Notes under the pieces: generated by a model | Databases searched by the model: none | Told to the model about the DNA's origin: nothing | The model's input: only the letters and a program-made list of their open reading frames with translations | Shown here: piece by piece, positions 13,770 through 41,540 of the stretch | How the letters are laid out: each line of letters begins with the position of its first letter | Numbering within the stretch: position 1 is the first letter of the stretch | Translations under genes and position numbers: made by a program | DNA from: Halarcobacter sp. | GTDB taxonomy: Bacteria > Campylobacterota > Campylobacteria > Campylobacterales > Arcobacteraceae | Assembly (NCBI GenBank): GCA_963676565.1 | Contig: OY781089.1 | Coordinates: 3,168,001 to 3,232,000, forward strand | DNA length: 64,000 bases | Reading direction: 5' to 3'

Positions 13770-15073
13770 TTGAATACCTCCTTAAACTTGTGTACTATCT
13801 CATTAAAATTATACTGTTCTTTCATACTTTGTGTCAAGAAATCTCTAACTTTATCTTTTCTAGCCAATGCATCATCTAGCTCAGGGTCCATTCCTGCTTT
13901 ATATGCTCCAACTCTAACTAGAACTTCATTCTCTTTTATTAGTGATAATATCCTTTTTAGCTTTAAAAAGTCATTATAATGGTCATCACTAACAACTTTG
14001 TCCATTACCCTTGACGCTGATTTTAGAATATTTATAGGTGGATAAAAACCTTGTTCGGTTAAATCTCTTGTTAATACAATATGTCCATCTAAAATAGACC
14101 TACTTTGATCTGCAATTGGATCATTCATATCATCACCATCAACTAAAACTGTAAAAAATGCAGTAATTGAACCCTTTGCATTATTTCCTGCACGCTCCAT
14201 TAATTGGGGTAAAAGTGCAAAAACTGAAGGTGGATATCCACGGCTAACTGGTGGTTCACCGGTACTTAATCCAATTTCCCTTTGTGCCATTGCAAATCTT
14301 GTTACAGAATCCATCATTAAAAGTACATCATGCCCTTTATCCCTAAAAAACTCAGCAATTGCCATTGCTGTAAAGGCACCATATTTTCTCATTAAGGCTG
14401 ATTCATCTGAAGTTGCAGCAACAATAATTGTATTTTCCAAATCATCATTTAGATTATAGTGTATAAACTCAGGGATTTCACGTCCCCTTTCACCAATTAA
14501 TGCTACAACTTTTATCTGTGCTTCACAACCTTTTACAATCATACCCATTAAAGTTGATTTACCAACACCAGAACCTGCAAAAATTCCAACTTTTTGTCCC
14601 TTCCCTGATGTTAACATTGAATCAATTGGTTTAACTCCTGTTGAGAATCTTTTATCAATAATTCCCCTCTCAAGTGCAGGCATTGAGACTTTATTTATTG
14701 CTGAGCTTTCTTCAAGATTTGTAATTTTACCTTTATCATCAATTGGTTCACCTAGTGCATTTACAACACGACCTAATAAACCATATCCACTTTTAACAGA
14801 TAAACCCTCTTTTTGTAAATAAACCTTATCATGAATTCTAAAACCATCAATAAAAGAAAAAGGTACAATTGTGAAATCTGATGATTCAATTGAAGCTACC
14901 ATTCCTAAAACAGTATAAAGATGTGCTTGAGACTCAATTTTTACAATATCACCAACAGCAACTTCTATACCTGTTGCCTTTATTGTAGTTGTTGAGATAT
15001 GTTTAATTCTACCAAAAGGTATTGATAAATCTTTTGTTTCAATACTATTTAAAAGTGACTCAATATCTACCAT
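13766..15073 (-). CDS. fliI: Flagellar export ATPase FliI
   Basis: Motifs GIFAGSGVGKST, ALIGERGRE, DSVTRFAMAQREIG. Confidence 0.97.
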   Translation of the reverse strand: MVDIESLLNSIETKDLSIPFGRIKHISTTTIKATGIEVAVGDIVKIESQAHLYTVLGMVASIESSDFTIVPFSFIDGFRIHDKVYLQKEGLSVKSGYGLLGRVVNALGEPIDDKGKITNLEESSAINKVSMPALERGIIDKRFSTGVKPIDSMLTSGKGQKVGIFAGSGVGKSTLMGMIVKGCEAQIKVVALIGERGREIPEFIHYNLNDDLENTIIVAATSDESALMRKYGAFTAMAIAEFFRDKGHDVLLMMDSVTRFAMAQREIGLSTGEPPVSRGYPPSVFALLPQLMERAGNNAKGSITAFFTVLVDGDDMNDPIADQSRSILDGHIVLTRDLTEQGFYPPINILKSASRVMDKVVSDDHYNDFLKLKRILSLIKENEVLVRVGAYKAGMDPELDDALARKDKVRDFLTQSMKEQYNFNEIVHKFKEVFK

Positions 15074-17067
15074 TACATCTCATCACACATTTTTTTATAA
15101 AGACTATCTTTTGTATTTTCAATATCCTTACACTTATTAATATATTCATCTTTTTTAATGTTATTATCAAATTCTTCATATAATTTTATAATAGAATAAT
15201 ATGTTTGTGCAAGGTCATTTGGTTTTATCCTTCTTGCATTTTCAATTGATTTTAAAAGTAAGTCTAAAGCTTTTTTGTTGTTATTATTGGTTTGTTCAAT
15301 TTTTGATAATTCTAACTCAACAAATGGAGAATAAACATAAGCTTTTAAAGCATTTTGTTTATCATAAAGCTTTATTAATATCTCTTTTGCCTTTTCTTTC
15401 ATATCTTTTTTTATAAGATATAAATAATAGTTGTAATAAAAATCAATAATCATTGGATTATCTCTATTATCTTCTATAAAATCTTCATTTTTTGAAGCAA
15501 AATTAAAATACCTATCAAGAGCAACAGAATCATTTTTTTGCTTTAAAAGTAAAAACTTATATAAAAACTCTTTACTTAAAACTTTTTTATCATCTACCAT
15601 TTCAACTTTATTTGAATAATTTTCTGCTTCCTCAAAATCCCTTAATGAAATAGCCATTCTTTCTAAGTATAAATATATGTTTGCATCTCTTGTTGAATTA
15701 AAAGTATCTTTTATAAGTAAAAAAGATTTTTCAGAAGGAGCTTCAACCATACACTCAAAAAACTTATATTTTAACTCTTCATCTTTTATTAAAAGTTCTA
15801 GAGTCTCATTTCTTGATGTTTCTAAAGCATCTTTTAGTAAAAAACATTTACCTGTTCTTAGATAGTTTTTTATCATCTCAATATTAACTTCATCAAAAAT
15901 TGCATTTACAGAATCATAACCAAACCTATTTGCTATTGTATTTGATATTTTTCTGTACACTTTTTTCGATTTTAAAATAAGCTCATATTTTTTTTTGGCT
16001 TTATCATTAAGCAACTCTTGTAATAAAACTTTTTGTTGCATAGCTTCAGAAGATTGATATTTCGTTGCTAAAACAGCAGGTTCTATTTTCCCTTCTCTCA
16101 TGACAATTTCATCAAGATACATTTTTGACTTTTCAAAATATATCCCATCGGGAAAATCATTTATAATATCTTTATACAATTCTTTTGCCTTTAAAAGATA
16201 TTTATCAGTTCTATCATACATACTCATGTAAGTGTCTGCAAGTTTAAACTTAAAATCTTCAATTGATGAGGGTTTATTAGTTCTTTGTAAAAGCTCTTCT
16301 AAAATCTCAACTGCAAATTCAGGCATACCAACCTTAGTAAGTCTATTTACTTTTTCTAAAGCAAGATAGGAGTCATCTGCGTAATAATCCATATTTTTTT
16401 GAAGAACTTTTGAGATTAACTCATAAGCTTTTTCTCTTTTTCCATCTAAAATATATACATCAAATAGCTCATCTGCAACAATTGTAGCAACTAAAACATC
16501 AGTTGTTTCAGTTAAAATCTTGTATAAAATATTGATTGCTTTTCCATAATCCCTTTGATGTTTATAGATTTTTGCTAAATAGATTTTTCCATAAGCTTTT
16601 GTAACAGGATTATTAAAATTGTTTATAATAATATTTGCAAAATATATTGCATCTTTTGATTTGTTTGTATTTAGTTTTAATTCAATTAAAACCATATAAG
16701 CTCTTGCTAAATCCTCTTCGTAAATTTTTGAGTCATTAATTGCTTGCTCTAACTCTTTTGAAGCTTCTAATATTAATCTTTTTGTTTTCTTTTTTAATGC
16801 AAGTTCTGAATATACTACAATAAGTGCAGAATCTAATATTTTAATTGTATTTTGCCCTTTAAAGGCTTCAATTTGAGTATAAGCTTCATCAATTTTACCC
16901 TCTTTTGCAAGTTGTCTTGCATGGTTAATAATCTCGAAGCCATCTGATATTGCGCGTTTTCTTCTCTGAGAAATTTGCTCCCCTGAAGAATCAATAAAAC
17001 CATAATAAAAATCTTTTTTTGCAAATAATGTTGAAAATAACAAAATAAATATTATTAGTAACTTCAA
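15073..17067 (-). CDS. Periplasmic TPR protein, PflA-like motor scaffold
   Basis: Signal peptide and TPR-like helical repeats. The segment KAINILYKILTETTD..VA...LQKNMDYY resembles Campylobacter PflA as I recall it. Lies inside the flagellar operon, overlapping fliI. Confidence 0.65.
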   Translation of the reverse strand: MKLLIIFILLFSTLFAKKDFYYGFIDSSGEQISQRRKRAISDGFEIINHARQLAKEGKIDEAYTQIEAFKGQNTIKILDSALIVVYSELALKKKTKRLILEASKELEQAINDSKIYEEDLARAYMVLIELKLNTNKSKDAIYFANIIINNFNNPVTKAYGKIYLAKIYKHQRDYGKAINILYKILTETTDVLVATIVADELFDVYILDGKREKAYELISKVLQKNMDYYADDSYLALEKVNRLTKVGMPEFAVEILEELLQRTNKPSSIEDFKFKLADTYMSMYDRTDKYLLKAKELYKDIINDFPDGIYFEKSKMYLDEIVMREGKIEPAVLATKYQSSEAMQQKVLLQELLNDKAKKKYELILKSKKVYRKISNTIANRFGYDSVNAIFDEVNIEMIKNYLRTGKCFLLKDALETSRNETLELLIKDEELKYKFFECMVEAPSEKSFLLIKDTFNSTRDANIYLYLERMAISLRDFEEAENYSNKVEMVDDKKVLSKEFLYKFLLLKQKNDSVALDRYFNFASKNEDFIEDNRDNPMIIDFYYNYYLYLIKKDMKEKAKEILIKLYDKQNALKAYVYSPFVELELSKIEQTNNNNKKALDLLLKSIENARRIKPNDLAQTYYSIIKLYEEFDNNIKKDEYINKCKDIENTKDSLYKKMCDEM

Positions 17068-18878: not shown

Positions 18879-21437
18879 CTACATATAATTTAAATCTTCA
18901 GTTGCATCCTTATTTTGAATAATAGATTCAATTACTTCATCTGAAGAGTGGGTTTGTGGATTATTCTCATTATTTGAATTTTGCTCATTAGAGGATTGAT
19001 TATTTGAACTCTCATTTTGCATATTAAAATCAAGAGTAACTGTTGTTTGTGGATTATTAAAGTTTCTATTTATAGCATCCCTTAACATAGATTGATTTTC
19101 AACAAAAGCATCATGAGTAGAAGATTGAGATAAATTCATACTAATAGATATAGCATTCTCTTTATCAGCTTTCATTAAAATTGCAATATGTCCTAATTGA
19201 GCAGGGAATAAATTTATTCTAAATGCAGTTACAGGAGGTTTATAGTTTTCATACATATTTCTAGCTACATCAGACATCATACTTGACATTTGTTGTTGTG
19301 CACCAATAATTCTATTTTGAATTGTCATTGCTAAATTTGGATTCACATTTAAATTAACACTATTTGTCTCACTTGTAGAATTTGTATTTGTGCTTGTAGA
19401 AGAGGAATTAGTTACACTATTTGAAGCAATTTTTTGAGACTCTAAATTTTCTGCCGCTTTTTTAAGTAATTCTTCCACATTTAAATTTTTATTAAAAGCT
19501 AATTTATCCAATAAAGAAATTTTTTCTAAGTTTGGTTTAGTATTAGCTTGAGGTTCGGCTTTTACTGAACTTTCATCAACCTCAACTGATGTATCTTCTA
19601 AATTCAAATTTAAAATATTTGCACCTTTTTTTACATCTTCAATAGAAGATCCATCTTTTACAGTTTTAACACCCTCAGTTTTATTCGAAAGCATTTGATT
19701 ATATATTGAATTTTTTTGAGAACTTAAATATATATTTGTTGCAATATCATTATTGTTTTTATTTATAGTTCCTGGTTCAGGTGAAAGATTCTCTTGTAAA
19801 TTTGGATTTTTAGTAGATATTGTTTGAGCTTTTGCATTATCAAATAATCTATCCATCAATGATTTAGATTCTTGTTTTGGACTTTGAGCTTTAATATTTT
19901 CATCTTTGTTTGAAGATTCATTTAACTTTGAGATATCATCTTTTTTTAGATTTATTGTTTCATCGTTAGTATTTAAAGCTTGATTATCTAAATCAGAAAG
20001 CTTATTTTGAGTTGACCCAGAACTTACTTGTGAATTTGACTGTGAATTTGTATTATTTTGTTGTGTTGTATTTTTATCCGTTGATATATTTGTTTCTTGA
20101 GAACTATTATTTGCAACTTTTGTATTAGTATTATTTATTTCACTTTTTAGTTCAGTTTTAATCTCTTCTTTATTTGAAACACTTGACTTAGAATCCTCTT
20201 TTGAAATTGTAGTTTCAATATTCTCTTTTTTATTTAAGCTTATATCTTTTTCAACTTTTTTAGTATCATTTACAACTTCATCATCTAATTGTATATTTTG
20301 ATTTGGACTAGGTTTACTTTCTGTTTCTACCTTAGTTTTGATATCTTTTTTTAGTGGTTGAGATTCATCTGTTTTAGATTCTTGTGGTTTAGAATCTATT
20401 TTTTCAAGTTCATCAAAATTTATCTCCACTTGAGTTTGTGTAGAATTTATAGTTTTTGAATTATTTTCTTCTACTTTTTTAGTATCACTTGCATCTATAT
20501 CTTTTTTTGCTTCATTTACTAATTTATCTAATAATGAATTTGAATTTTCTGCTTTTGTCTCAGTTGATGGAGAAGAAGAATTCTGTTTTTCTTTTTTTGT
20601 CTCAGTTGTTGCATTTGTAGGAGAAGTACTATTTTGTTTTTCTTCTTTATTCTCACCTTTATTTTCTACAGTTTTTAAGTTTATTTCATCTTTTGCTTTT
20701 GAAACTAGCTTATCTAATAAAGAAGAATCTGACTTATTATCTTTAGTAGTTTTATTTTCTGTTTGTGCATCTTTTTCTTCTGGAACAACTTCTTTTATAC
20801 TTACTTTTTCATTTTCCTTTGAAGTTTCAATATTTGTCTTATCAACTATATTTAAATTTTTTTCTTCTGTTTTATTAACTTCTTGTTTAGTACTATTTAA
20901 ATCTTTTTCAATAGTTTGCCCTTTTGGCTCAACTTTTTCAGTGCTATTTTCTTTTATCTCAACACTATTTTTATTATTTGATTTTGTTTTTTGATTTGCT
21001 TCTAAAACCATTCTATCTAACATAGAATTTTTATTGATTGAAGGTTCACTAACCTTAGATTCTAAGTTTTTCTCTTTAGAGTCATTTGTACTAAGATTCT
21101 TAACTTCTTCTTTTGATTCTTTATTTTCAGAAGTTTTATTTTGAGATACTTTATTCTCTTGAGTTTTATCTATATTCTCATTTTTTGTTTGTGCTTGTTT
21201 ATTTTCAGTTTTATTATTAGTTTCAGCACTTGTTATTTGTTTTGATAAATCAGTATTTTGTTTAGATTTTTCATCTGATAAGTTTGTATTTTTGCTTTGA
21301 ATCTCATCTTTTGAACTAGTTAGTAAAGAATCAAAAAGAGATAATCCCTCTTTTTTTTCAGTTCCACTACTTTTTGTTCCAGAAGAAGCATTACTATCAG
21401 TTTTTGATAATGATAAAAAATCTATTTCTTTTGTCAT
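18879..21437 (-). CDS. fliK: Flagellar hook-length control protein FliK
   Basis: Long polar low-complexity region followed by a C-terminal T3S4-like domain (FRINLFPAQLGHIAI...LRDAI) and an N/Q/S-rich tail; flagellar context. Confidence 0.85.
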   Translation of the reverse strand: MTKEIDFLSLSKTDSNASSGTKSSGTEKKEGLSLFDSLLTSSKDEIQSKNTNLSDEKSKQNTDLSKQITSAETNNKTENKQAQTKNENIDKTQENKVSQNKTSENKESKEEVKNLSTNDSKEKNLESKVSEPSINKNSMLDRMVLEANQKTKSNNKNSVEIKENSTEKVEPKGQTIEKDLNSTKQEVNKTEEKNLNIVDKTNIETSKENEKVSIKEVVPEEKDAQTENKTTKDNKSDSSLLDKLVSKAKDEINLKTVENKGENKEEKQNSTSPTNATTETKKEKQNSSSPSTETKAENSNSLLDKLVNEAKKDIDASDTKKVEENNSKTINSTQTQVEINFDELEKIDSKPQESKTDESQPLKKDIKTKVETESKPSPNQNIQLDDEVVNDTKKVEKDISLNKKENIETTISKEDSKSSVSNKEEIKTELKSEINNTNTKVANNSSQETNISTDKNTTQQNNTNSQSNSQVSSGSTQNKLSDLDNQALNTNDETINLKKDDISKLNESSNKDENIKAQSPKQESKSLMDRLFDNAKAQTISTKNPNLQENLSPEPGTINKNNNDIATNIYLSSQKNSIYNQMLSNKTEGVKTVKDGSSIEDVKKGANILNLNLEDTSVEVDESSVKAEPQANTKPNLEKISLLDKLAFNKNLNVEELLKKAAENLESQKIASNSVTNSSSTSTNTNSTSETNSVNLNVNPNLAMTIQNRIIGAQQQMSSMMSDVARNMYENYKPPVTAFRINLFPAQLGHIAILMKADKENAISISMNLSQSSTHDAFVENQSMLRDAINRNFNNPQTTVTLDFNMQNESSNNQSSNEQNSNNENNPQTHSSDEVIESIIQNKDATEDLNYM

Positions 21438-25339: not shown

Positions 25340-25639
25340 TTACTTTCGTTCTGATAAAAAATTATAAAGCATATCGCTTAAGCCAACTGTACCTGTAGAT
25401 TGTCTTGCAACTGCTTCTGTATATAAACCTTTTATAATATCAGAGCCACTTCCTTCACCTGCAATTGGAGTAGATTTTAGTGAAATATCTAAAAGTTGTT
25501 GCATAAAAAAAGCTTCAAAATCATCTGTAACTTTTCTTAAAGAATCATCTTGCAATTTTGAACTATCAATGTTCTTATATTTATCCGTTGGATTAGTTTT
25601 AATAGTGTTTATATCAACTAAATTTGTATTTATTTCCAT
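25340..25639 (-). CDS. flgJ: Rod-binding protein FlgJ (short form, no muramidase domain)
   Basis: Rod-binding motif LRKVTDDFEAFFMQQLL...GSDIIKGLY...GLSDMLY. Confidence 0.88.
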   Translation of the reverse strand: MEINTNLVDINTIKTNPTDKYKNIDSSKLQDDSLRKVTDDFEAFFMQQLLDISLKSTPIAGEGSGSDIIKGLYTEAVARQSTGTVGLSDMLYNFLSERK

Positions 25640-25641
25640 TT

Positions 25642-26415
25642 CTACTCCACTCTGTCAAAGAAGTTTTCTTCACTTAAAAGTTCTTCTTGATTATCTTGAG
25701 AGAAAAATCTCATCTCAACTCTTCTATTATCAGATGCCTTTTCACTTTTTGGATGATAAGAAGCATATGCAGAAACTTTTAAAATAGAAGGGTCTATTCT
25801 ATTTTTAATAAGCTCTTTTACAACTTCAATTGAACGCAAGGCAGAAATATCCCAGTTATCTCTAGGAATTTTATCATCACTATACGGACTTGCAGAGGTA
25901 TGTCCTATAACTTCAATATTGTAAGTTTGAGGCATCGTTCTAATAACTCTTGCAATTTTAGCAATAAATCTTTTTGCATTTGAATTTGTTAAAAGATATT
26001 CTCCCTCTTCAAAAATTATAGTTGATGGAATATCTAATGTAAACTCATTTTTCCCTTTTTCTAATTTAATTTGCTCAGTCTCTTCGGCATTATTTTCATT
26101 TATTTGTTCAACTAAATCAGAAACTTCCTCTGCAGCTTGTTGCATAGAATTATCTGTTGAATCTACACTATCATCTTGAGAGCTACTATTTTGGGTTGAA
26201 TATTTTTCAGATTGAGTTTCAACATCAGTTGAAGCATCAATAAAACCCATTGCTTTTCTCATTACATCAAAATACTCTTCTACTTTTTTCTTATCCATAA
26301 CTGCCATAGATAAAAGTAAAATAAAAAAAGTAAGTAAAAGTGACATTAAGTCACCAAATTGAACTAACCAACCTGGTAAACATTTTGGACACTCAGGACA
26401 TTTATCTTTTGCCAT
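25642..26415 (-). CDS. motB: Flagellar stator B subunit (MotB/PomB family)
   Basis: TM helix WLVQFGDLMSLLLTFFILL with the conserved Asp; OmpA-like domain (GHT, NWDISALR, NRRVE). Confidence 0.95.
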   Translation of the reverse strand: MAKDKCPECPKCLPGWLVQFGDLMSLLLTFFILLLSMAVMDKKKVEEYFDVMRKAMGFIDASTDVETQSEKYSTQNSSSQDDSVDSTDNSMQQAAEEVSDLVEQINENNAEETEQIKLEKGKNEFTLDIPSTIIFEEGEYLLTNSNAKRFIAKIARVIRTMPQTYNIEVIGHTSASPYSDDKIPRDNWDISALRSIEVVKELIKNRIDPSILKVSAYASYHPKSEKASDNRRVEMRFFSQDNQEELLSEENFFDRVE

Positions 26416-26426
26416 AAGTTTTTTTT

Positions 26427-27182
26427 CTACTCTTCAATTTCAACAAGAATCGAATTTAGTTGCATTTTAATATTTCCAATTGATTCTTCAGCTGCAATCA
26501 TAGTTGCACCTTTTATTATAACTTCACAAGTATCAACTTCTTTTTTATGCTTTTGAGCAAGCTTACTCTCAATAATACCAGCAAATAAAGTACCAACTAA
26601 TGCACCATACATTGTTGTAAGTAAAGCAACCGCCATAGCTGGACCAACAGCAGCTGGATCTGAAAGGTTAGCAAGCATTGCAACTAGACCAACAAGAGTA
26701 CCAATCATTCCCATTGCCCCTGCGGTACCACCTACATTACCAAATAAACCAATCATAGTTTCATGTCTTTTTGACATATATTCTAATTTTGTTTCTAATA
26801 AAGGTTGAAGAGTTTCAGCTTTTGTACCATCAACTAATAACTGAAAAGCTTCTTTGAAAAAAGGATTTGATTCTTCTAAAACTTTTTGCTCAATATGCAT
26901 TACGCCATGTTTTTTAATCTCTGTAGCATAAAAAGTGATTTTTTCAACTAATTCAGGTAATGGTTCAAATTTCACTTCATTTAAAGCAACTTTCATTGCA
27001 GGAGTAACTCTTTTTAAATCACTTCCTTCAAATTGACCTGCCGTTACAGCTATTGTACCACCAAGAACAATAACAACAGAAGGGATATCAATATAAGGAC
27101 CAAATCCTACACCACCTAATATAATTGCAAGGGCAACAAGGGCCCAACCACCACCTAAACCACCAGCTGTACTCTTATCCAT
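26427..27182 (-). CDS. motA: Flagellar stator A subunit (MotA/PomA family)
   Basis: Motifs MGMIGTLVGLVAML and GPAMAVALLTTMYG. Confidence 0.95.
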   Translation of the reverse strand: MDKSTAGGLGGGWALVALAIILGGVGFGPYIDIPSVVIVLGGTIAVTAGQFEGSDLKRVTPAMKVALNEVKFEPLPELVEKITFYATEIKKHGVMHIEQKVLEESNPFFKEAFQLLVDGTKAETLQPLLETKLEYMSKRHETMIGLFGNVGGTAGAMGMIGTLVGLVAMLANLSDPAAVGPAMAVALLTTMYGALVGTLFAGIIESKLAQKHKKEVDTCEVIIKGATMIAAEESIGNIKMQLNSILVEIEE

Positions 27183-27185
27183 ATG

Positions 27186-28085
27186 CTAAAATCCTATTTG
27201 GCTTAATCTTGTTGAGCCATTTCCAATGTTTTTAACTTTTAAACCAAATTTTCCTTCAACAATTACGGCTTCACCTTCACCTATTTTAACACCATTTACT
27301 AATATTTCAAGGGGTTCATTAACCATTTGTTCTAATTCAATAATCTCACCAATATCCCATCTAAGAATATCTTTTAATAAAAAGTTTTTCGTACCTAACC
27401 TTACACTAAGCTTTAACTTTATATCAAATAACAATTGTAAGTTTTCAGCTGATTCTTCAGACAGTAAAGAACTAATCCCTAAAGGTGATGAAGAGCTTGA
27501 AGAAGTGTTTGTATTTTGTACATTATTGTTCGTTGGCGCTACCTTAGCTTCTGCTGTAGTTTCCTCTTTCCCTGTGATTCCAGACAAATATGGCAAAGCA
27601 AGTTCATCAAAAGCCACATAAATAGGTAGTTTTTCTCCATCTAAAGTTAAATCAAAAAAATAACTATTTTCTAAACCTTTTAATTCACTGCAATCTTTTA
27701 TAACAGAACCTAAAACTTCAGACTTTATTGATAATATATCAGCAAAACCTTGAGCATTAACGCTAGTACATAAACTTCCACAAACGTTTGCTATAATTTC
27801 ATTTACTGCATCAGTAATCTCATCATCAATATGTTCTTTTAGATCTCCCATACCACCTAACATAAAATATTCAAATTTTGTTGCAGTATTTGTTGGTATA
27901 AAAAATTTCCATATTGATGAAATATCTGAAAAGTCAAATTTAATTGATACTTCAATACACTGTGAATCTTCCAATTCCTGGGCTTTAGATTCATTTATTG
28001 AATCTATAATTACTTTTTTTGAAAGTAATTGCTCAAGGGTATTGGCTAATTCATCTTTTAAAAAACTTGATAAATCTGACGCCAA
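27186..28085 (-). CDS. fliY: C-ring protein FliY (CheC-like N-domain plus FliN/SpoA domain)
   Basis: C-terminal SpoA domain (LSVRLG...GEIIELEQMVNEPLEILVNGVKIGEGEAV); N-terminal degenerate CheC-like region (DAVNEIIAN). Confidence 0.8.
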   Translation of the reverse strand: MASDLSSFLKDELANTLEQLLSKKVIIDSINESKAQELEDSQCIEVSIKFDFSDISSIWKFFIPTNTATKFEYFMLGGMGDLKEHIDDEITDAVNEIIANVCGSLCTSVNAQGFADILSIKSEVLGSVIKDCSELKGLENSYFFDLTLDGEKLPIYVAFDELALPYLSGITGKEETTAEAKVAPTNNNVQNTNTSSSSSSPLGISSLLSEESAENLQLLFDIKLKLSVRLGTKNFLLKDILRWDIGEIIELEQMVNEPLEILVNGVKIGEGEAVIVEGKFGLKVKNIGNGSTRLSQIGF

Positions 28086-28525: not shown

Positions 28526-30523
28526 TTATAGAGATTCTAATAATTCATCGAATTTATCAATTTTAAAATCGATTAAATCATCTAAATAAGGTCGATTAAA
28601 GTATTGTGATACACTTCCAAGTTTTAATTCTTGAATCAATTGAACACCAGTTAAAAAATCTGCACTGCTATCTTTTAAAATAGCTTTAATTAAAGAGATT
28701 TGTAAAGATGCTTCATTTAATTTACCTGCTTCTAAATATGCAGCAACAATTAAATACATAGTATATTTATCTTCTAATTTATACTCTTTTTGCAAGTTTT
28801 CAAGGATTTTTAATGATTCTAAAGGCTTTCCTTCATGAAGAAGTGTTAAAGCCTTAGTTCTAAGATATGATGGATTTTCATTCTCATTAAGATTTAAATC
28901 TGCTTTATCAAAAAGACCTAAAGCTTTTAGCAAATCAATGTAATAACTAGTGATTACTATTGGTGCTTGTAAAAAATTACTATTTATTTTTAAAGGGGTA
29001 TTATCTTGTAATCTTGCAAAGTAATTATAATCATTTTCACCATCTCTTCTAATTGTTGATTTAACTAAATAAACAAGAGGATCTTTATAATGATCTTTAA
29101 ATAATGGATGATTGATATCAGCTTTATTTTCAGATAATTTTATTAAGTAATCTAAAGATTTATAAAAAATTGTATCCCTATAATTTAATGGTGCAAATTG
29201 ATTTTCAAATTTTTCATTTATAAAAATTTTATATACTTCCTGACCGAAATATCTATACATACCTTCATCACTTCTAATATTTTGCTCAATATAATCTAAA
29301 TCACTGATCTTTACATTTATTCTACTAGCACTGATTATTGTCATTACTGCATAAAGTTTATTTCCTGGATTTAGTTTGTATGCTTTTGTAAAAAAATTAT
29401 AAGCTTTATGAAAATCATCTATTTGTGCATAACATAAAGCAAGATTATAATATACATAGGAATTAGAATTATCAGTTATATAATCTTTTAATTTATTTAC
29501 CCTTGTAATTGGATCTTCTTTTAATATATCAATAAATCTAGAATTATATTTAACCATTCTCTCAAGACTTTCAACATTTTGCCTGTTTTTAAATATAAAC
29601 CCCTTTGAAATATCATATAAAATCTCTTCATTATCAGAAAAAATAAATGGTGCAAAGTAAAATAAAAAATCTATTTTTCTATTAGTATCAAGCTGAGTTA
29701 CAAATTTTAAGTATTCTTTTGTTGTATATTTATTTTTATTAAAATATATCTCTAAGGGATACTCCAAATTTGTTTTAAAATATTCTTTAACTTTTCTAAT
29801 CTCTTCAATATGTTCTTTTAATTTTTCAAGTTGATTTGATTTTAAATCTCTGTATACCATTAACCATAAAATAATATTTTTTCTTTCAGGGTTTAATGTT
29901 TCAGCCTTTGCTTTTTCAAGTCTTTGTTCTGCACTTGAGTAGTCATGAAGTTTCAAATACAGCATGGCAATTTTAAGCTGCATTGGGAACTCCATTGAGT
30001 TTAGTATTTTTAAAGCCCTTTCATAATCTTTTAAAATAATATATGTGTCTGCTACCATTCTTTTAGAATGTTCCGTTAAATTTTTAAATTTACTTGTAAC
30101 TTCAATAATAGTTTCAAGATATTTTCTTTCTTTTTTTATTTGATAAAGATAAAAACATGTTGAGATATAAGAATATGTATTTGTTCTTTCAGCATCTTTA
30201 AACTCGAAAATATTATTTAAATACAATAAGGCATTTTCTATTTGATTTAATTTATAATATGCTATTCCAATATTTAAAAAAGATGGTATTTTCAATAAAG
30301 AAGAGGTCTCTTTAAATATCTTTATTGCTTCTTTATATTCCCCTTTTTCTAAGTGTAATATCCCTTTATTAAATTCTAATTGTAGTCTAAACTTTTCTTG
30401 AGTTTTTTTTAGATTGTCAAATTTAAAAAGTATCTCAGGTTGAGATTCAGTTAATTCATCTTTTGAAAGTAAATCACTTGAAAATGTTAAAATTATTAAA
30501 AAAACAAATAAAACTTTTCTCAA
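28526..30523 (-). CDS. Periplasmic TPR protein, PflB-like motor scaffold
   Basis: N-terminal hydrophobic segment and TPR repeats (FLNIGIAYYKL; YYNLALCYAQ...AYKLNPGN). DFLFYFAP and the DFKID C-terminus match Campylobacter PflB as I recall it. Confidence 0.7.
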   Translation of the reverse strand: MRKVLFVFLIILTFSSDLLSKDELTESQPEILFKFDNLKKTQEKFRLQLEFNKGILHLEKGEYKEAIKIFKETSSLLKIPSFLNIGIAYYKLNQIENALLYLNNIFEFKDAERTNTYSYISTCFYLYQIKKERKYLETIIEVTSKFKNLTEHSKRMVADTYIILKDYERALKILNSMEFPMQLKIAMLYLKLHDYSSAEQRLEKAKAETLNPERKNIILWLMVYRDLKSNQLEKLKEHIEEIRKVKEYFKTNLEYPLEIYFNKNKYTTKEYLKFVTQLDTNRKIDFLFYFAPFIFSDNEEILYDISKGFIFKNRQNVESLERMVKYNSRFIDILKEDPITRVNKLKDYITDNSNSYVYYNLALCYAQIDDFHKAYNFFTKAYKLNPGNKLYAVMTIISASRINVKISDLDYIEQNIRSDEGMYRYFGQEVYKIFINEKFENQFAPLNYRDTIFYKSLDYLIKLSENKADINHPLFKDHYKDPLVYLVKSTIRRDGENDYNYFARLQDNTPLKINSNFLQAPIVITSYYIDLLKALGLFDKADLNLNENENPSYLRTKALTLLHEGKPLESLKILENLQKEYKLEDKYTMYLIVAAYLEAGKLNEASLQISLIKAILKDSSADFLTGVQLIQELKLGSVSQYFNRPYLDDLIDFKIDKFDELLESL

Positions 30524-30905: not shown

Positions 30906-33308
30906 TTATCTTTTTAAGTTAATTAAAGTATTTAATAACTCATCTGATGTTGTGATAGATTTAGCATTTGCTTCAAATGCTCTTTGAAATACCATTAAGT
31001 TTACTAAACTCTCACTTAAATCTGCTGTAGAAAGTTCTAAGGTTTGACCTTCAATCTTAGCAGTTTTGTCATTATTTAAATTATAAATTGGCTCACCAGA
31101 TTCATTTGTTTTTCTTAATAAGTTATCCCCTGATGGTTCTAGTCCTCTATTGTTATTAAATAAAGCAACAGAGATTTGACCAATAGCAAATTCAGCACCA
31201 TCTTGTTTCATATAGATTATACCTGCACTATCAACAGAAAATTCTCCAAAAGCAGAATCTGAGATTCCTAAGGCATCAAGTTTTAATTGTAAAGAGCTTT
31301 GTGTTGTTGTTTGATCAATTGTATTAACTAATTCAATAAACTCTGCTCCAGCACCTTGTCTCCCACTATAATCATTATTTTTATCTAATGGAGTATAATC
31401 TAAATAAGTAGTATTTGCACCTACTGTATCTGCATTATCGCCTTTAGTTTTCATTGAACCACTAAATTCAACATCATAATTTTCATTTTTAGTTTCAATA
31501 ACAAGATTACCATTAATATTTTTAGCAACTACATAATCTGATAGATTAAATGAACTTGCTGTTTGATTACTACCATCACTTGATAATTTATAATCGTATG
31601 CTGTAGTGCCATTTATTGCTGCAACTATATCATCAATTGATGTTGCATTATTAATAAAAATATCTAATGGAGTTTCAGGAGTTGTTGAACTTAATCCTGG
31701 AACTGGAATTATTTTTTCTAAATCTTTATCATAAATAGTAATTCCATAAGTAAAATCTATAGTAGAACTTCCATCTAATCCAAGATCTGATGGAGTATAA
31801 ACATCTTGTTGTTTACCTGTGATTGCTTTAGCTAATGCATCTCTAGCACTTTGTAAAGCTCCTATTCCTGAACCTTCAACTGCATTTGTACCTGTTTGGT
31901 AAGATCCTGCAACAGTATTATTCCCTGATGATTCACCTACTTCACTAATAGTAAAAGTTTCACCGGGAATTAAAGATTCGATTTGAATCATACCTTTTAT
32001 CATATCTGTATTTTTAGTAGATAAATTAAATGATTCACTTTCTTGAAGAACATCATTATTAGTACCAGTAAAATCACTTTCGTCAACTGTATAAGCTCTT
32101 AATCCAGATATTTCAGAAATTGTATCGGCTAAACCTCTATATGTAGCAATCCTACTTGCTGCAATATCTGCATTAATTGTTAATGAACTACTATATGAAG
32201 CTTCTGATATTGTAGTTGGAGAAATACCTAACTCAACTGTTGTTGCAGTTGTTGAAAGTGTACCACCATAAGTTGAATTTAGTGCAGTATTAGATGAAAT
32301 TGCATCAGCTAAACCTTGAACTATTTCTGCAACAGTTGCATTTTCATCAGAAATATAAGATACTGTTTCACCATCAATAGTTAACTCATATTTTGCATTA
32401 TTTTCAGCTGTATCTATGCTAATTTGGTCATTTGTACCTGCATTATTCGCTAATGACATTGAACCACTATCTGTAGATGTATCTAAAAAACTTTCTTTAA
32501 ACTCATCTGTTGCAACTGTTGCTACATAATTTTGTGAATACTTATTTCCATTTATATAAACATAAACCTGATCACCATCTTTTGATATTAAAGCATCATT
32601 TCCAGATTTAAAGTTTATTTGTGAGACTTGAGCAGTTGAACTTGCACTTCCACCATCTGGCTCATCTTGTAATTTTGACAACCAAGAAGCATAGTTTGAA
32701 ACAAGTGCTTCAACATCTGCAATTTTTGCAGATTTACTTTTTGCACCAGCCCCTTCAAAAATTACACTTGAATCTGCTTTTGCTGTAGCTGTATAATCTG
32801 TAGCTTTTGCTGTAATAGTTTCCACATAAGTTGAGTGACTTACAACTTTTGATGTTAATAATTTAGTATAATCATTTGTAAACATATCAACATTAGGATT
32901 TGTACTTACTACATCTTGGCCAGGATCAAGTGCTCGCATAGCCCATCCTTGAACCTCATTTCCAGCTGCATCTTGTAAGGTACCATTATCACCCATTCTA
33001 AGATTTCCTGCTCTAGTATACATGTTTTCACCAGAAACACTATTTTTAACAGTAAAAAATCCATCTCCACTAAGAGCCATATCATAATCAACTCCAGTTA
33101 GTTTCAGATTTCCTTGTACATATAATTTTTCTGCATCAAGTATTTTAGACCCTTTACCAATTCTATCTTGGTACATTTGGTCTGCAAAAGATATCCTAGA
33201 TGCCTTATAACCTACTGTATTTACGTTTGCTATATTGTGTGACTCATTATCTAACGCCGTTTGATGAGACGAAAGTCCTGAGATTCCTGTCCATAATGCT
33301 CCGATCAT
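30906..33308 (-). CDS. flgE: Flagellar hook protein FlgE (long paralogue)
   Basis: N-terminal NIANVNTVGYK, DMALSGDGFF, YTRAGN; C-terminal LELSTADLSESLVNLMVFQRAFEANAKSITTSD. Confidence 0.9.
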   Translation of the reverse strand: MIGALWTGISGLSSHQTALDNESHNIANVNTVGYKASRISFADQMYQDRIGKGSKILDAEKLYVQGNLKLTGVDYDMALSGDGFFTVKNSVSGENMYTRAGNLRMGDNGTLQDAAGNEVQGWAMRALDPGQDVVSTNPNVDMFTNDYTKLLTSKVVSHSTYVETITAKATDYTATAKADSSVIFEGAGAKSKSAKIADVEALVSNYASWLSKLQDEPDGGSASSTAQVSQINFKSGNDALISKDGDQVYVYINGNKYSQNYVATVATDEFKESFLDTSTDSGSMSLANNAGTNDQISIDTAENNAKYELTIDGETVSYISDENATVAEIVQGLADAISSNTALNSTYGGTLSTTATTVELGISPTTISEASYSSSLTINADIAASRIATYRGLADTISEISGLRAYTVDESDFTGTNNDVLQESESFNLSTKNTDMIKGMIQIESLIPGETFTISEVGESSGNNTVAGSYQTGTNAVEGSGIGALQSARDALAKAITGKQQDVYTPSDLGLDGSSTIDFTYGITIYDKDLEKIIPVPGLSSTTPETPLDIFINNATSIDDIVAAINGTTAYDYKLSSDGSNQTASSFNLSDYVVAKNINGNLVIETKNENYDVEFSGSMKTKGDNADTVGANTTYLDYTPLDKNNDYSGRQGAGAEFIELVNTIDQTTTQSSLQLKLDALGISDSAFGEFSVDSAGIIYMKQDGAEFAIGQISVALFNNNRGLEPSGDNLLRKTNESGEPIYNLNNDKTAKIEGQTLELSTADLSESLVNLMVFQRAFEANAKSITTSDELLNTLINLKR

Positions 33309-33411: not shown

Positions 33412-34857
33412 CTATTTTTTCATCTCAATTGCAGTTCTTAAAAACTCATCTGATGTAGTTACTGATTTTGAACTAGCTTCAAATGCTCTTTGATATACCA
33501 TCAAATCAACTAAACTTTCACTAAAATTTGTATTACTTAATTCTATTGACCCACCAGTTAATGTATTTAAATTATCAGCATTATAAGGATTTCCTGTATC
33601 TTTACCAATTGTATATAATGTTTCACCTTTTGGTTCTAAAGATTCAGGGTTTTGAAATGTAACAGTTTCTAATTTTCCAATCAAAAATTTGTTATCTTGA
33701 TCTTTTGCATAGATAAGACCATCTTCAATAGATAATAGTCCAAATACATTTTCAGATATATTCAAATCATCAAGTTTTAATTGAAGTTCCCCTATTCCTG
33801 CAAGTGTAGGACCAGCATCATTAATTGTATTAGTTACCTCTAAAAACTCTCCTCCAGCAGTAACAATTGCATCTCTTAAAGCATCCCTTACACTATTAAC
33901 AGCTGCATATCCTGTCCCAGAAACTGGTGAAACAATTTCATTTATACCATAACCATTTGAATTAATTGCAGCACCTGTTATTCTGTTATCTCGACCAGGG
34001 ATCAAAGAACTTATTGTTAGAAGCCCAGTGTTATCAACAGTTGCACTCATACCAGCTACATTTGAAATCTTATCAGCAAATAGATTCATAGTTGTTTGAG
34101 CATCTGTTTCAAAAGGTTGTTTTATTGAATCGTTATTAATATAAATTTCAATATATCCACTTGTTAATTCTGTAGAAAAATCTGAAAAGCTAACTTGTGT
34201 AACTTGAGAAGTTGAAGCAGTACCATCTACAGGATTTGCGGAATATAAATCTAATTGAACATTATATTCTGCAGATAATTCTCTTATGTCATTTAATAAA
34301 GCACTTGAACTTTTAAAACCTTGTCCACTGATTCCTGTATCAACTGCGGTTAATGTATAATCTGTAGCTTTTGCATTAATAGTTCTTGAAAAGCCAACTC
34401 CATTGATTGGTTCTGTTGCAATAAATTCTGTGTAGTTATTATTGTAAGTTTGAGTACCATCAGTACTTACTATACTAGAAAAAGTTGTAGGACTTCCATA
34501 AATTTTATCACCATAAGCAGTTTGCAAAGTTCCATCAGTTCCCATTTTGAAGTTACCTGCTCTAGTGTATAAGGTTTCCCCTGTTTTTACATCATTTACA
34601 ATAAAAAAACCTTGTCCATCAATTGCTACATCAAGTGTGTTATTGGTTACTTTTAAATTTCCTTGTTCAAAGTTTTTCTCTACATTTTGAATTTTAACAC
34701 CATTACCATATCTTGATTGATACATCAAATCTTCAAAAGATACATCATCTTTTTTATGGGCAATTGTATTTGAGTTTGTAACATTATTAGACTGAGTATT
34801 TAATGCTCTTTCAAAAGTATTTAACCCCGTAACACCATTCCATAATCCACTAATCAT
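33412..34857 (-). CDS. Flagellar hook/basal-body protein, FlgE short paralogue
   Basis: Motifs DVAIDGQGFF, YTRAGNF, ELSNTNFSESLVDLMVYQRAFEA; directly after flgD; colinear motifs with the long flgE. Confidence 0.85.
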   Translation of the reverse strand: MISGLWNGVTGLNTFERALNTQSNNVTNSNTIAHKKDDVSFEDLMYQSRYGNGVKIQNVEKNFEQGNLKVTNNTLDVAIDGQGFFIVNDVKTGETLYTRAGNFKMGTDGTLQTAYGDKIYGSPTTFSSIVSTDGTQTYNNNYTEFIATEPINGVGFSRTINAKATDYTLTAVDTGISGQGFKSSSALLNDIRELSAEYNVQLDLYSANPVDGTASTSQVTQVSFSDFSTELTSGYIEIYINNDSIKQPFETDAQTTMNLFADKISNVAGMSATVDNTGLLTISSLIPGRDNRITGAAINSNGYGINEIVSPVSGTGYAAVNSVRDALRDAIVTAGGEFLEVTNTINDAGPTLAGIGELQLKLDDLNISENVFGLLSIEDGLIYAKDQDNKFLIGKLETVTFQNPESLEPKGETLYTIGKDTGNPYNADNLNTLTGGSIELSNTNFSESLVDLMVYQRAFEASSKSVTTSDEFLRTAIEMKK

Positions 34858-40505: not shown

Positions 40506-41540
40506 TTATTTATTAAATTCAGCAATTAACGCTTCTAAATCGTCATCACCAACTAAATCATCATTTTTATCACCATGGATATGTTTAGCTATGGCAACCT
40601 CTTCTCTATTATTCTCATCTTCAAATAGATTGTTTAAATATGTTGATAGTTTTCTAATTACTGACATTACTCTTTCAATCTTTTGTCTGTTGATATCATG
40701 ATATTGCATTAATTCCATTGCTTGAAATATCTCTGTACTTCCATCATTTATTTTTTCATTTGCATCATTTATATATGCTGCCATTTGATTTGCTTGTTCT
40801 AAATTTTGTTGAAAAGCATTAATATTTGGAAACTTTTGACTCAAAGATGATAACATAGCTATTTGCTTTTCATTAAAGCCACTTAAAGCTTGTATATCAT
40901 TTTGAATTGCATTATTATAATCTAATATATTACTTAATACATCAAAGATTTTTGTTGCTTTCTCTTCTGAATCATTTGCAACGGCACTTAATTGGTTTAC
41001 AACTTTTGTATCCTCTTCAACAGGGAATGGAAATACTCCTGAATTTATCTTATAATCTAAATTATCTTCATCTTCTTCTTTTGAAGGAGTTTCCATTTGT
41101 GCTTGAATAGAAGGTGTTTCTTCACTAATGCCTTCAATTGAATTTAAAATATCATCAAAGTTTTCTTCAGGTGCTTGAGTAATTGATTCTTCTTTTATGT
41201 CCTCAACAATTTTGTCTTCAGAAATATCATCATTGTTATTGCCAATATCCAATTCTTTCAAAATATCGTCAATATTAGTTTCTTCTTGACTTGTACTCTC
41301 ATCTTCATTTTCAGAAGACTCTAAACTTGAAAGTATCTCATCTATGCTTTCATCTTTTGCAGCATCTGAGAAAACTGCCTCATTTGAAGCTTCTTCAGTT
41401 TCTTCTATTAATTTATTAATATCATCTTCGGACATACTTTCATGGGATTCAATCTCTTCATTAGTCTGTTCTTCTGATTCACCCTCATTGAAATCTAAGC
41501 CATTCATCAAAGATTCTATTTCTTCTTGACTCATACTCAT
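40506..41540 (-). CDS. cheZ: Campylobacterota-type CheZ phosphatase with an extended acidic N-terminus
   Basis: Catalytic D-x3-Q motif in MQYHDINRQKIERV; C-terminal DDLEALIAEF CheY-binding helix; adjacent to cheY. Confidence 0.85.
   Translation of the reverse strand: MSMSQEEIESLMNGLDFNEGESEEQTNEEIESHESMSEDDINKLIEETEEASNEAVFSDAAKDESIDEILSSLESSENEDESTSQEETNIDDILKELDIGNNNDDISEDKIVEDIKEESITQAPEENFDDILNSIEGISEETPSIQAQMETPSKEEDEDNLDYKINSGVFPFPVEEDTKVVNQLSAVANDSEEKATKIFDVLSNILDYNNAIQNDIQALSGFNEKQIAMLSSLSQKFPNINAFQQNLEQANQMAAYINDANEKINDGSTEIFQAMELMQYHDINRQKIERVMSVIRKLSTYLNNLFEDENNREEVAIAKHIHGDKNDDLVGDDDLEALIAEFNK

Follow-up and report, generated by a model that had tools for sequence, protein, structure and literature searches.

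The DNA analysed here, called the window below, is a stretch of 64,000 nucleotides from Halarcobacter sp. (contig OY781089.1). Flagellar genes were found between positions 10280 and 39341 and encode FlhA, FliI, FlhB, FliR, FlgC, FliE, FlhG, FlhF, MotB, MotA, FliY, FlgE, FlgD, FliN, FliH, FliG and FliF. The motA and motB genes of this cluster encode an intact stator of the MotA/MotB type (Table 1). The MotA protein matched PF01618 with 88.2 bits, above the Pfam cut-off of 22.9, and the MotB protein contained the PF13677 MotB_plug (residues 8-56, 53.4 bits) and PF00691 OmpA (residues 135-234, 47.7 bits) domains of Pfam. The two genes are the only flagellar stator genes of the genome, a single contig of 99.97% completeness with a single flagellar-size MotA and a single MotB_plug match; two long MotA_ExbB proteins encoded elsewhere in the genome were Zorya-like.

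Table 1. Stator genes, their neighbours and the residues discussed in the text, in order of position in the window.
Feature	Position	Strand	Basis
Small gene, rod-binding-like protein, downstream of motB	25340..25639	-	PF10135 8.7e-4, below cut-off
motB/pomB-like stator B subunit, 257 aa: TM helix with Asp22, plug, OmpA-like domain	25642..26415	-	
MotB L33 = PomB L35 (Asp+11)	26317..26319	-	Leu in 67/67 loci; Ala in 21/21 C. jejuni-type
MotB D22, ion-binding Asp, = PomB D24	26350..26352	-	Alignment and codon check
MotB V18 at the PomB G20 position	26362..26364	-	Val in 67/67 loci
MotB N-terminal CPECPKC (C6, C9, C12)	26380..26400	-	All three Cys in 67/67 loci
motA/pomA-like stator A subunit, 251 aa	26427..27182	-	PF01618; best PDB match PomA
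MotA I203 replacing PomA P199 (E. coli P222)	26574..26576	-	Alignment and codon check
MotA T189-T190 = PomA T185-T186	26613..26618	-	Kept in 68/68 Arcobacteraceae-like loci
MotA T162 = PomA T158	26697..26699	-	Thr in 68/68 Arcobacteraceae-like loci; Ala in 21/21 C. jejuni-type
MotA G155 replacing PomA P151 (E. coli P173)	26718..26720	-	Alignment and codon check
fliY, directly upstream of motA	27186..28085	-	PRK08432 153 bits, under cut-off 219; PF01052 match
TPR protein, candidate PflB stator scaffold	28526..30523	-	TPR Pfam matches and weak PflB match

The TPR protein aligned with PflB over nearly its full length but weakly (9leq_B, 1e-08, residues 50-645 against 3-628; C. jejuni PflB 9hmf_L, 3.3e-08). 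Unlike PomAB, the window stator adjoins a PflB-like scaffold gene, and homologues of MotX, MotY and FlgT were not found in epsilon-proteobacteria (Chaban 2018). The C. jejuni MotAB (6YKM), which comes from the same phylum and belongs to the same overall 5:2 family, probably has a PflB-type scaffold partner. An 852-aa protein of the cluster (18879-21437) was without a PDB or Pfam match, and its identification as PflA was therefore dropped. The small rod-binding-like gene was a syntenic neighbour of motB in related genomes as well.

The PDB was searched with phmmer to identify proteins similar to the two subunits. The top match of MotA was V. alginolyticus PomA (E-value of 1.6e-39, 139 bits), with Paenibacillus MotA1 (9lu9) at 4.7e-31 and C. 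jejuni MotA at 2.9e-11 (46.7 bits), and the top match of MotB was PomB (8bri_F, 4e-18). PomA/PomB (8BRD, 8BRI, 8ZYV) was thus the best structural match of both window subunits, and the TM3 core was identical. The NCBIfam models for PomA (NF006527), MotP (NF005383) and the Campylobacter/Helicobacter type (PRK08456) gave 169.5, 154.2 and 91.6 bits with MotA, under their respective cut-offs of 341, 394 and 380.

The alignment of MotA with PomA (8brd/8bri) was gapless across TM3-TM4, where MotA numbering runs four ahead of that of PomA, and the codons were checked. The stretches 'amgmigtlvglvaml' and 'gpamavalltt' were identical between the two proteins. The earlier note on this DNA had equated three threonines of MotA with PomA T158, T185 and T186 and had itself named this mapping as a point at which its reading could fail; the gapless alignment places the triad at exactly these positions, and the observation on the window stator was confirmed. 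Its statement that the residue eleven positions after the MotB aspartate is Leu, as in PomB, also held. Additionally, the C. jejuni MotA motifs that it had given proved right, as the 6ykm_A row reads 'tmGLVGAvfgl' and 'gaFTATvtgi'. The C. jejuni residues were read through the alignment of a relative, and the residue-by-residue PDB reading for window MotA covered the PomA and Aquifex MotA chains.

As described by Nishikino 2024 (PMC11725901), nine residues form Cavity-I, namely PomA L162, M165, L166, M179 and L183 and PomB L28, C31, F32 and L35, and M165, M179 and L35 are Na+-type markers. Eight of the nine were identical in the window stator, and the ninth, PomB C31, was Thr, a change (C31T) that left Vibrio motility unaffected according to the same paper. 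The further published Na+-type markers M165, M179, A190 and PomB S27, L28 and L35 were all present. The window MotB also shares D24, F32 and a Cys-rich N-terminus with PomB, and the rotor-facing charges K90, K91 and E98 of MotA are present. In contrast, C. jejuni MotA contains P151, A158, A185, I190, A165 and I179, and its MotB contains Ala at L35; at the sites from A158 to I179 in this list, the window MotA residues are T, T, A, M and M. The A, I and A at M165, M179 and L35 were found in all 21 C. jejuni-type loci.

The window stator and PomAB were similar but not identical. In particular, P151, P199, N194, D148 and T33 of PomA were replaced by G, I, T, G and P, the last being Pro34 at the proposed entry site, and G20, M19, T21, L17 and C31 of PomB were replaced by V, L, Q, G and T. 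The window MotB was also shorter than PomB (257 versus 315 residues). The triad, G155 and MotB L33 were invariant among Arcobacteraceae-like loci (68/68 for MotA, and 67/67 for MotB with the N-terminus present), so the residue pattern is not due to chance.

Two prolines of MotA, P173 and P222 in E. coli, are textbook conserved residues linked to torque generation. The earlier note had described the replacement of the proline before TM3 by Gly, which the alignment and the codons bear out (G155 at P151), and had missed the loss of P199. This second conserved proline is gone as well in the Arcobacteraceae form, and window MotA has no Pro beyond residue 181. Gly was found at position 151 in all 68 Arcobacteraceae-like loci and in all 20 sister-type loci of other Campylobacteria, whereas 131 of the 138 nearest cluster representatives contain Pro. 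At position 199, the 68 Arcobacteraceae-like loci contain I, L or V, whereas Pro is invariant across the other three types (44 class-level loci). Both prolines were described as conserved and important for torque in a preprint (Deme 2020), a role for which Deme 2020 and Islam 2023 cite Braun 1999, and the P151 carbonyl was described as helping to bind Na+ at site 1 (Hu 2023, PMC10374538). A family without P173 and P222 offers a natural test of the function of both.

The PomAB-like stator is not peculiar to the window genome. It was present in 138 of the 184 Arcobacteraceae genomes searched, of which 13 encoded a C. jejuni-type pair in addition to the PomAB-like one; 23 genomes had a C. jejuni-type pair only. 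From its slot in the latter group, the PomAB-like pair was cleanly absent in the three genomes examined. In three genera, the C. jejuni-type MotAB was located outside the flagellar cluster. Outside the family, a sister form with Gly151, the triad and Pro199 was found in many other Campylobacteria, and Gly151 together with the triad occurred in 20 of the 45 aligned class-level loci, including genera in the two family codes of the C. jejuni-type clade. The description of the stator as unlike those of Campylobacter and Helicobacter therefore stood for the C. jejuni-type clade but not for the class as a whole.

A tree was built with representatives of 50%-identity clusters. The window clade grouped with the Gly151 sequences of other Campylobacteria (SH-aLRT 93), in a clade different from that of P0012, the sole representative over the PomA cut-off, and horizontal transfer from Vibrio was rejected on this basis. 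The C. jejuni-type sequences were set apart from the window type by the longest branch. Labelling the tree by ion type through NCBIfam equivalogs was abandoned: only one of the 75 scanned representatives (P0012) passed the PomA model and none passed any other, so the tree carries residue signatures instead of ion labels.

The residues on the ion path show the stator of this marine-type Arcobacteraceae genome to be PomA/PomB-like, as judged by alignment, at most known positions. From this pattern, we infer with moderate confidence that Na+ is the main coupling ion. T158, T185 and T186 were described together with A190 as the ligands of Na+ site 2, and in H+ stators T158 and T185 were described as replaced by Ala, with an Ile in the vicinity of A190 (Hu 2023, PMC10374538). 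Rotation with PomA was still driven by Na+ when the B subunit contained M19L and G20A (Nishikino 2024, PMC11725901). The window stator is best explained as an ion-driven rotary unit of the MotA5MotB2 type from a PomA/MotP-like lineage. Hydrated Na+ would enter the PomAB-like hydrophobic Cavity-I, lose its water at MotB S25 and T29, bind MotA T162, T189 and T190, move to MotB D22 and exit to the cytoplasm. The cytoplasmic exit is remodelled by the changes P151 to Gly, PomB G20 to Val, M19 to Leu and T21 to Gln, and N194 to Thr, and the proline of TM4 is gone; together, these changes make the stator a distinct variant that is probably insensitive to phenamil. As possible sources of a Na+ gradient, the genome encodes three NhaA proteins (447-496 bits) and the beta subunit of a Na+-pumping decarboxylase (508 bits against a cut-off of 190.6); nqrB and nqrF of the primary Na+ pump NQR were looked for in the genome, and neither was found.

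The threonine triad is insufficient for a Na+ assignment. Nishikino 2024 (PMC11725901) describes the H+-driven R. sphaeroides MotAB as retaining the triad along with the remainder of the pathway, and residue matching therefore cannot settle the ion. The claim of a sodium-coupled motor was partly upheld: the Na+-type markers match, but the triad is shared with an H+-driven stator and V18 points the other way. V18, the Gly in place of P151, Pro34 in place of T33, the missed NCBIfam PomA cut-off and the missing nqrB and nqrF speak against Na+, and the sodium reading is plausible without being proven. A stator driven by protons and related to the PomA/MotP-like lineage by descent alone, as in R. 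sphaeroides, is improbable in our estimate. The R. sphaeroides MotAB is a PomA-like stator with the triad outside Vibrio, as is that of the window, and its identity to PomA was given as 40% (PMC11725901). The triad was also found in 131 of the 138 nearest cluster representatives, and it is improbable that every one of these is a Na+ motor. V18, the loss of P151 and the missing nqrB and nqrF fit a proton-driven stator as well, and close relatives are publicly named plain 'MotA' and 'MotB'. However, R. sphaeroides MotB differs from PomB at S27, L28 and C31, by the description in that paper, and at these sites the window MotB is PomB-like (S25, L26) or carries the neutral change (T29). M169, M183 and L33 are likewise of the Na+ type. 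The 13 related genomes with a second, C. jejuni-type pair alongside the window-type pair also argue against this alternative, since keeping a second pair makes more sense if each serves a different ion or range of loads.

A promiscuous stator that uses both Na+ and H+, like PotB-G20V or the dual-ion Bacillus clausii MotAB, is unlikely too. The intact periplasmic filter would admit Na+, and protons would in addition get through on the cytoplasmic side, which is remodelled at V18 and G155. Ridone 2022 (PMC9683732) reported that PotB G20V gives Na+-independent, phenamil-resistant rotation; V18 corresponds to this V20, the sole G20 substitution among those tested there that rotated without Na+, yet rotation was faster with Na+. 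The PomA/PotB-G20V stator, like that of the window, combines a PomA-type A subunit with Val at position 20 of the B subunit, and this Val was invariant in 67 of 67 loci; in the sister lineage of other Campylobacteria, the position varies (Ala in 14, Gly in 4 and Val in 2 of 20). PotB-G20V is a laboratory point mutant and was tested in a Vibrio/E. coli chimera only, whereas the window Val is a fixed natural state that occurs with Gly151. Furthermore, among 82 MotB sequences from across the tree, the same report counted Val at position 20 in 41 and Gly in only 7, all from Vibrio, so Val is the common ancestral state rather than a switch specific to ion use. Every residue of the Cavity-I size filter in the window stator is of the Na+ type. 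Coupling to K+, Rb+ or a divalent cation, which Onoue 2019 lists for some Bacillus and Paenibacillus stators, is highly improbable: Paenibacillus MotA1 was among the PDB matches, but Cavity-I, the size filter proposed to act against hydrated K+, equals that of PomAB except for the neutral C31T. Literature searches found no experiment on any member of the lineage of the window stator.

Insensitivity to phenamil had been offered as a refutation of the sodium motor, which is unsafe. Four phenamil-contact residues differ in the window stator, and insensitivity would therefore not refute Na+ coupling. This mismatch warns against phenamil as the sole test for a Na+ motor.

The motors of Campylobacterota are usually treated as high-torque machines powered by protons. 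If a second, PomAB-like stator lineage extends across the class, a different ion gradient would have to be assumed behind the motility of marine, vent and some host-associated members. We tentatively propose, as a possible joint reading, that most Arcobacteraceae and many Gly151 Campylobacteria swim with a Na+ PomAB-like stator on a PflB-type scaffold, that the Arcobacteraceae form runs without either 'invariant' MotA proline, and that the rotor cluster of three genera has been refitted with a C. jejuni-type H+ stator, the Na+ pair having been cleanly deleted in the three examined of the 23 genomes. If true, this would be a natural swap of ion and stator. Shewanella oneidensis is a single-flagellum bacterium with dual stators, PomAB and MotAB; the 13 of 184 Arcobacteraceae genomes with two types of pair resemble it in gene content. 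The dual-type genomes and their single-type close relatives, which share the same syntenic cluster, form a tractable system for rotor-stator compatibility and ion switching. In the one dual-stator genome examined (G154), the flagellar cluster was of the same type as that of the window.

A phmmer search of the PDB revealed that the window MotA was most similar to V. alginolyticus PomA (139 bits, E = 1.6e-39), and C. jejuni MotA was the last of its PDB matches (46.7 bits, 2.9e-11). The alignment of TM3-TM4 to PomA contained no gaps, and the residue mapping was therefore unambiguous: MotA T162 corresponded to PomA T158, T189 and T190 to T185 and T186, A194 to A190, G155 to P151, and I203 to P199. 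In a separate PDB alignment to PomB, MotB D22, L33 and V18 corresponded to D24, L35 and G20; the window codons for all mapped residues were checked. The earlier note had described a PomA-type threonine triad, a leucine 11 residues after the catalytic aspartate, and a glycine in place of the proline before TM3, and each was recovered at the aligned position; the C. jejuni MotA motifs that it had given were also present in the 6ykm_A alignment row. To its observation we add that the second conserved proline (PomA P199) was also gone.

Passages of Hu 2023 (PMC10374538) describe Na+ site 2 as built from PomA T158, T185 and T186 together with the G154 and A182 carbonyls; both T158 and T185 are Ala in the MotA of C. 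jejuni and of B. subtilis. Site 1 is formed partly by the carbonyls of P151 and PomB G20, and near it H+ stators have Ile in place of Ala or a polar residue. The window stator was identical to PomA at G154, M155, T158, L159, A182, T185, T186, G189 and A190, and to PomB at F22, D24, S27 and L28. In passages of Nishikino 2024 (PMC11725901), the size filter is the hydrophobic Cavity-I (PomA L162, M165, L166, M179 and L183; PomB L28, C31, F32 and L35), M165, M179 and L35 mark the Na+ type (H+ types carry Ala, Ile and Val there), and motility is unaffected by C31S or C31T. Eight of the nine Cavity-I sites were identical in the window, with Thr at C31. Of the three B-subunit positions that were swapped between MotB and MotS of B. 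subtilis (Onoue 2019), two were of the Na+ type (L33 and S36). The cytoplasmic 'short tunnel' and exit differed from PomAB (PomA P151G and N194T; PomB M19L, G20V and T21Q), as did the phenamil contacts (PomA D148G; PomB L17G, M19L and G20V). By this residue-by-residue comparison, the pathway is PomAB-like in its periplasmic half and remodelled in its cytoplasmic half.

A Na+ reading of the window stator is reasonable on these alignments, and its main coupling ion is somewhat more probably Na+ than not. We hold this preference at a modest level because H+-driven R. sphaeroides MotAB, which according to passages of Nishikino 2024 (PMC11725901) has the triad and departs from the PomAB pathway only at PomB S27, L28 and C31, shows that residue matching can mislead. 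Use of H+ only, as in that stator, is unlikely for the window pair, in which S27 and L28 are retained. Use of both Na+ and H+ is about as unlikely; in passages of Ridone 2022 (PMC9683732), PotB G20V allowed rotation without Na+ and with phenamil present, 41 of 82 MotB sequences carry Val at the PomB-20 site, and Gly there is confined to 7 Vibrio PomB sequences. A PomB N-terminal swap including M19L and G20A was still Na+-driven and had become phenamil-resistant (Nishikino 2024, PMC11725901, in part). The genome encodes three NhaA proteins and the beta subunit of a Na+-pumping decarboxylase; nqrB and nqrF were sought in it and neither was found. Arcobacter anaerophilus is now classed in Halarcobacter. 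In passages of Roalkvam 2015 (PMC4584990), its strain IR-1 bears one polar flagellum, fails to grow at 0% NaCl and grows best at 2%.

According to passages of a preprint (Deme 2020), E. coli MotA P173 and P222, which are equivalent to PomA P151 and P199, are conserved and important for torque: P222 makes contacts between MotA monomers, P173 and Y217 form a ring touching MotB W26, and the MotA chains flex at P173/P222. In the window, W26 was kept as MotB W16, whereas P173, Y217 and P222 were replaced by Gly, Thr198 and Ile, respectively. Glycine at the P173 site may preserve backbone flexibility; at the P222 site of the window MotA, there was no obvious substitute for the lost proline.

The window's genome is a single contig of 3.34 Mb (99.97% complete), and motA/motB is its sole flagellar stator. 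Among seven MotA_ExbB matches in the genome, four were ExbB/TolQ-sized and two were longer and Zorya-like; only one genome match resembled the window MotA, and the only MotB_plug match lay inside motB. The window occupies 3168001-3232000 of this contig; the G+C content is ~28%, and the closest named record is a Halarcobacter sp. MAG (MotA identity 99%). Both stator genes lie inside one large minus-strand flagellar cluster in the order FlhA, flagellin-like protein, FliI, FlhB, FliR, FlgC, FliE, FlhG, FlhF, three small ORFs, MotB, MotA, FliY, TPR protein, two FlgE-like proteins, FlgD, FliN, FliH, FliG and FliF. The 852-aa and 664-aa cluster proteins are candidate lineage-specific motor parts. 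Elsewhere on the same contig were two Zorya-like defence modules related to MotA/MotB (G000:C1 ~2903800-2905500, L007, and ~2041000-2043150, L006); one contained a 558-aa ZorA2 (PADLOC 633 bits) adjoining a WYL/WCX protein, and in the other a 360-aa ZorA-like protein preceded an OmpA protein resembling ZorB1 (149 bits).

Coordinates of the stator genes and other features in the window
Feature	Position	Strand	Description
664-aa protein	15073-17067	-	no Pfam family at E<=1e-5; sole trace TPR_12, below cut-off (E 9.4e-4)
852-aa protein	18879-21437	-	no Pfam family at E<=1e-5; no match in PDB search
motB	25642-26415	-	257 aa, intact; MotB_plug and OmpA matches
MotB CPECPKC	26380-26400	-	residues 6-12, cytoplasmic N-terminus
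motA	26427-27182	-	251 aa, intact; PF01618 match
TPR protein	28526-30523	-	weak near-full-length match to PflB chains (9leq_B, 1e-08; C. jejuni 9hmf_L, 3.3e-08)
FlgE-like hook gene	30906-33308	-	800 aa; adjacent to the next
FlgE-like hook gene	33412-34857	-	481 aa
344-aa protein	40506-41540	-	adjoins CheY-like receiver gene; CheZ sub-threshold (20.5 bits, cut-off 30.7)

We found 79 related loci, namely 68 Arcobacteraceae-like loci (MotA identity 64-99%), nine distant loci (35-38%), mostly from Planctomycetota-titled MAGs and with the triad and both prolines, and two contig-end fragments that were dropped from the counts. The triad, G155, M169, M183 and A194 were invariant across the 68 loci, and position 203 was Ile in 44, Leu in 13 and Val in 11; MotB V18, L33 and three N-terminal cysteines were kept in 67/67 loci, one further row being without its N-terminus. 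A class-wide search gave a match in 144 of 151 genomes, and 45 loci of ~146 matches, one to four per genus code, were aligned. At PomA 151, 158, 185, 186, 190 and 199, the C. jejuni type (P, A, A, T, I, P) was found in 21 of these loci, a sister type (G, T, T, T, A/S, P) in 20, the combination P, T, T, T, A, P in three and the window type in one. The sister type spans nine family codes, including genera that share family codes with genera g14 and g18 (g14 MotB against C. jejuni MotB, 284 bits; g18 MotA against 6ykm_A, 333 bits). Among the nearest 150 representatives at 50% identity, the 138 full-length ones were aligned; Pro151 was present in 131, Gly151 in 7 and the triad in 131.

A quick maximum-likelihood tree was built from 100 rows (9 Arcobacteraceae, 20 sister type, 3 of family f8, 56 representatives and 4 distant loci, with 8 of the 21 C. 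jejuni-type rows as outgroup). All 36 Gly151 rows lay to the same side of a branch whose SH-aLRT was 93 (not starred), the Arcobacteraceae clade had a support of 99, and the sole PomA-equivalog representative was placed outside the window's part of the tree. From the distribution and the tree, Gly151 seems to have arisen once, long ago, in Campylobacteria, and P199 to have been lost once, later, in Arcobacteraceae. Nested in the Arcobacteraceae clade was a long-branch representative, P0002 (247 aa), in which Pro occupies the T185 position and the TM3 glycine zipper is degraded ('GMIVTLILL'); this protein may be a paralogue that has diverged or a copy in decay.

Searching 184 Arcobacteraceae genomes with the window MotA and a C. 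jejuni-type MotA from genome G009 revealed the window type in 138 and the C. jejuni type in 36; 125 genomes had the window type only, 13 had both, 23 had the C. jejuni type only, and 23, many of them incomplete, had neither. The C. jejuni type occurred in genera g2 (32/44), g3 (3/11) and g56 (1/5), and the 19 remaining genera among these genomes lacked it; in the window's genus, the counts were 24/24 for the window type and 0/24 for the C. jejuni type. In G154, which has both, the window-type pair occupied the syntenic slot (FlhF, small ORFs, MotB, MotA, FliY, small ORF, TPR protein, FlgE), and the C. jejuni-type pair lay 40 kb away; the C. jejuni-type pairs of G154, G160 and G009 had no neighbour resembling any window flagellar-cluster protein. 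In three of the 23 genomes with the C. jejuni type only, the slot was examined (G009, L165; G033, L166; G185, L164): the flagellar cluster was intact and syntenic, and FliY abutted a rod-binding-like gene (gap 0 to 108 bp) with no motAB between. The Arcobacteraceae C. jejuni-type rows formed their own long branch, and the tree fits either a gain or an old paralogue.

Literature searches on Arcobacter, Epsilonproteobacteria and Campylobacterota stators, sodium, PomA and phenamil yielded no statement on the Arcobacteraceae coupling ion or this stator lineage. Chaban 2018 and Mo 2022 handle MotA/MotB generically, with neither 'sodium' nor 'PomA' occurring in the text of the latter, and in Miller 2007 no passage matched for MotA/MotB or for Na+ in the role of coupling ion. 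In one metatranscriptome paper, 'PomA' appears as an annotation label in a list of Campylobacterales transcripts, and public proteins in the same 90% clusters are named 'flagellar motor protein MotA', 'chemotaxis protein MotA/MotB' or 'OmpA/MotB family protein'. The window stator is a real, conserved variation on a known kind of machine; the finding is lineage-wide and thus broader than the earlier note had seen, and it is also richer, as it takes in the two missing prolines and the exchange of stators.

At least two of the MotB N-terminal cysteines were also kept in sister-type B subunits, C. jejuni-type B subunits and PomB. As each stator has two B chains, six thiols would lie beneath the MotA ring, and this cluster is a possible metal or redox site.
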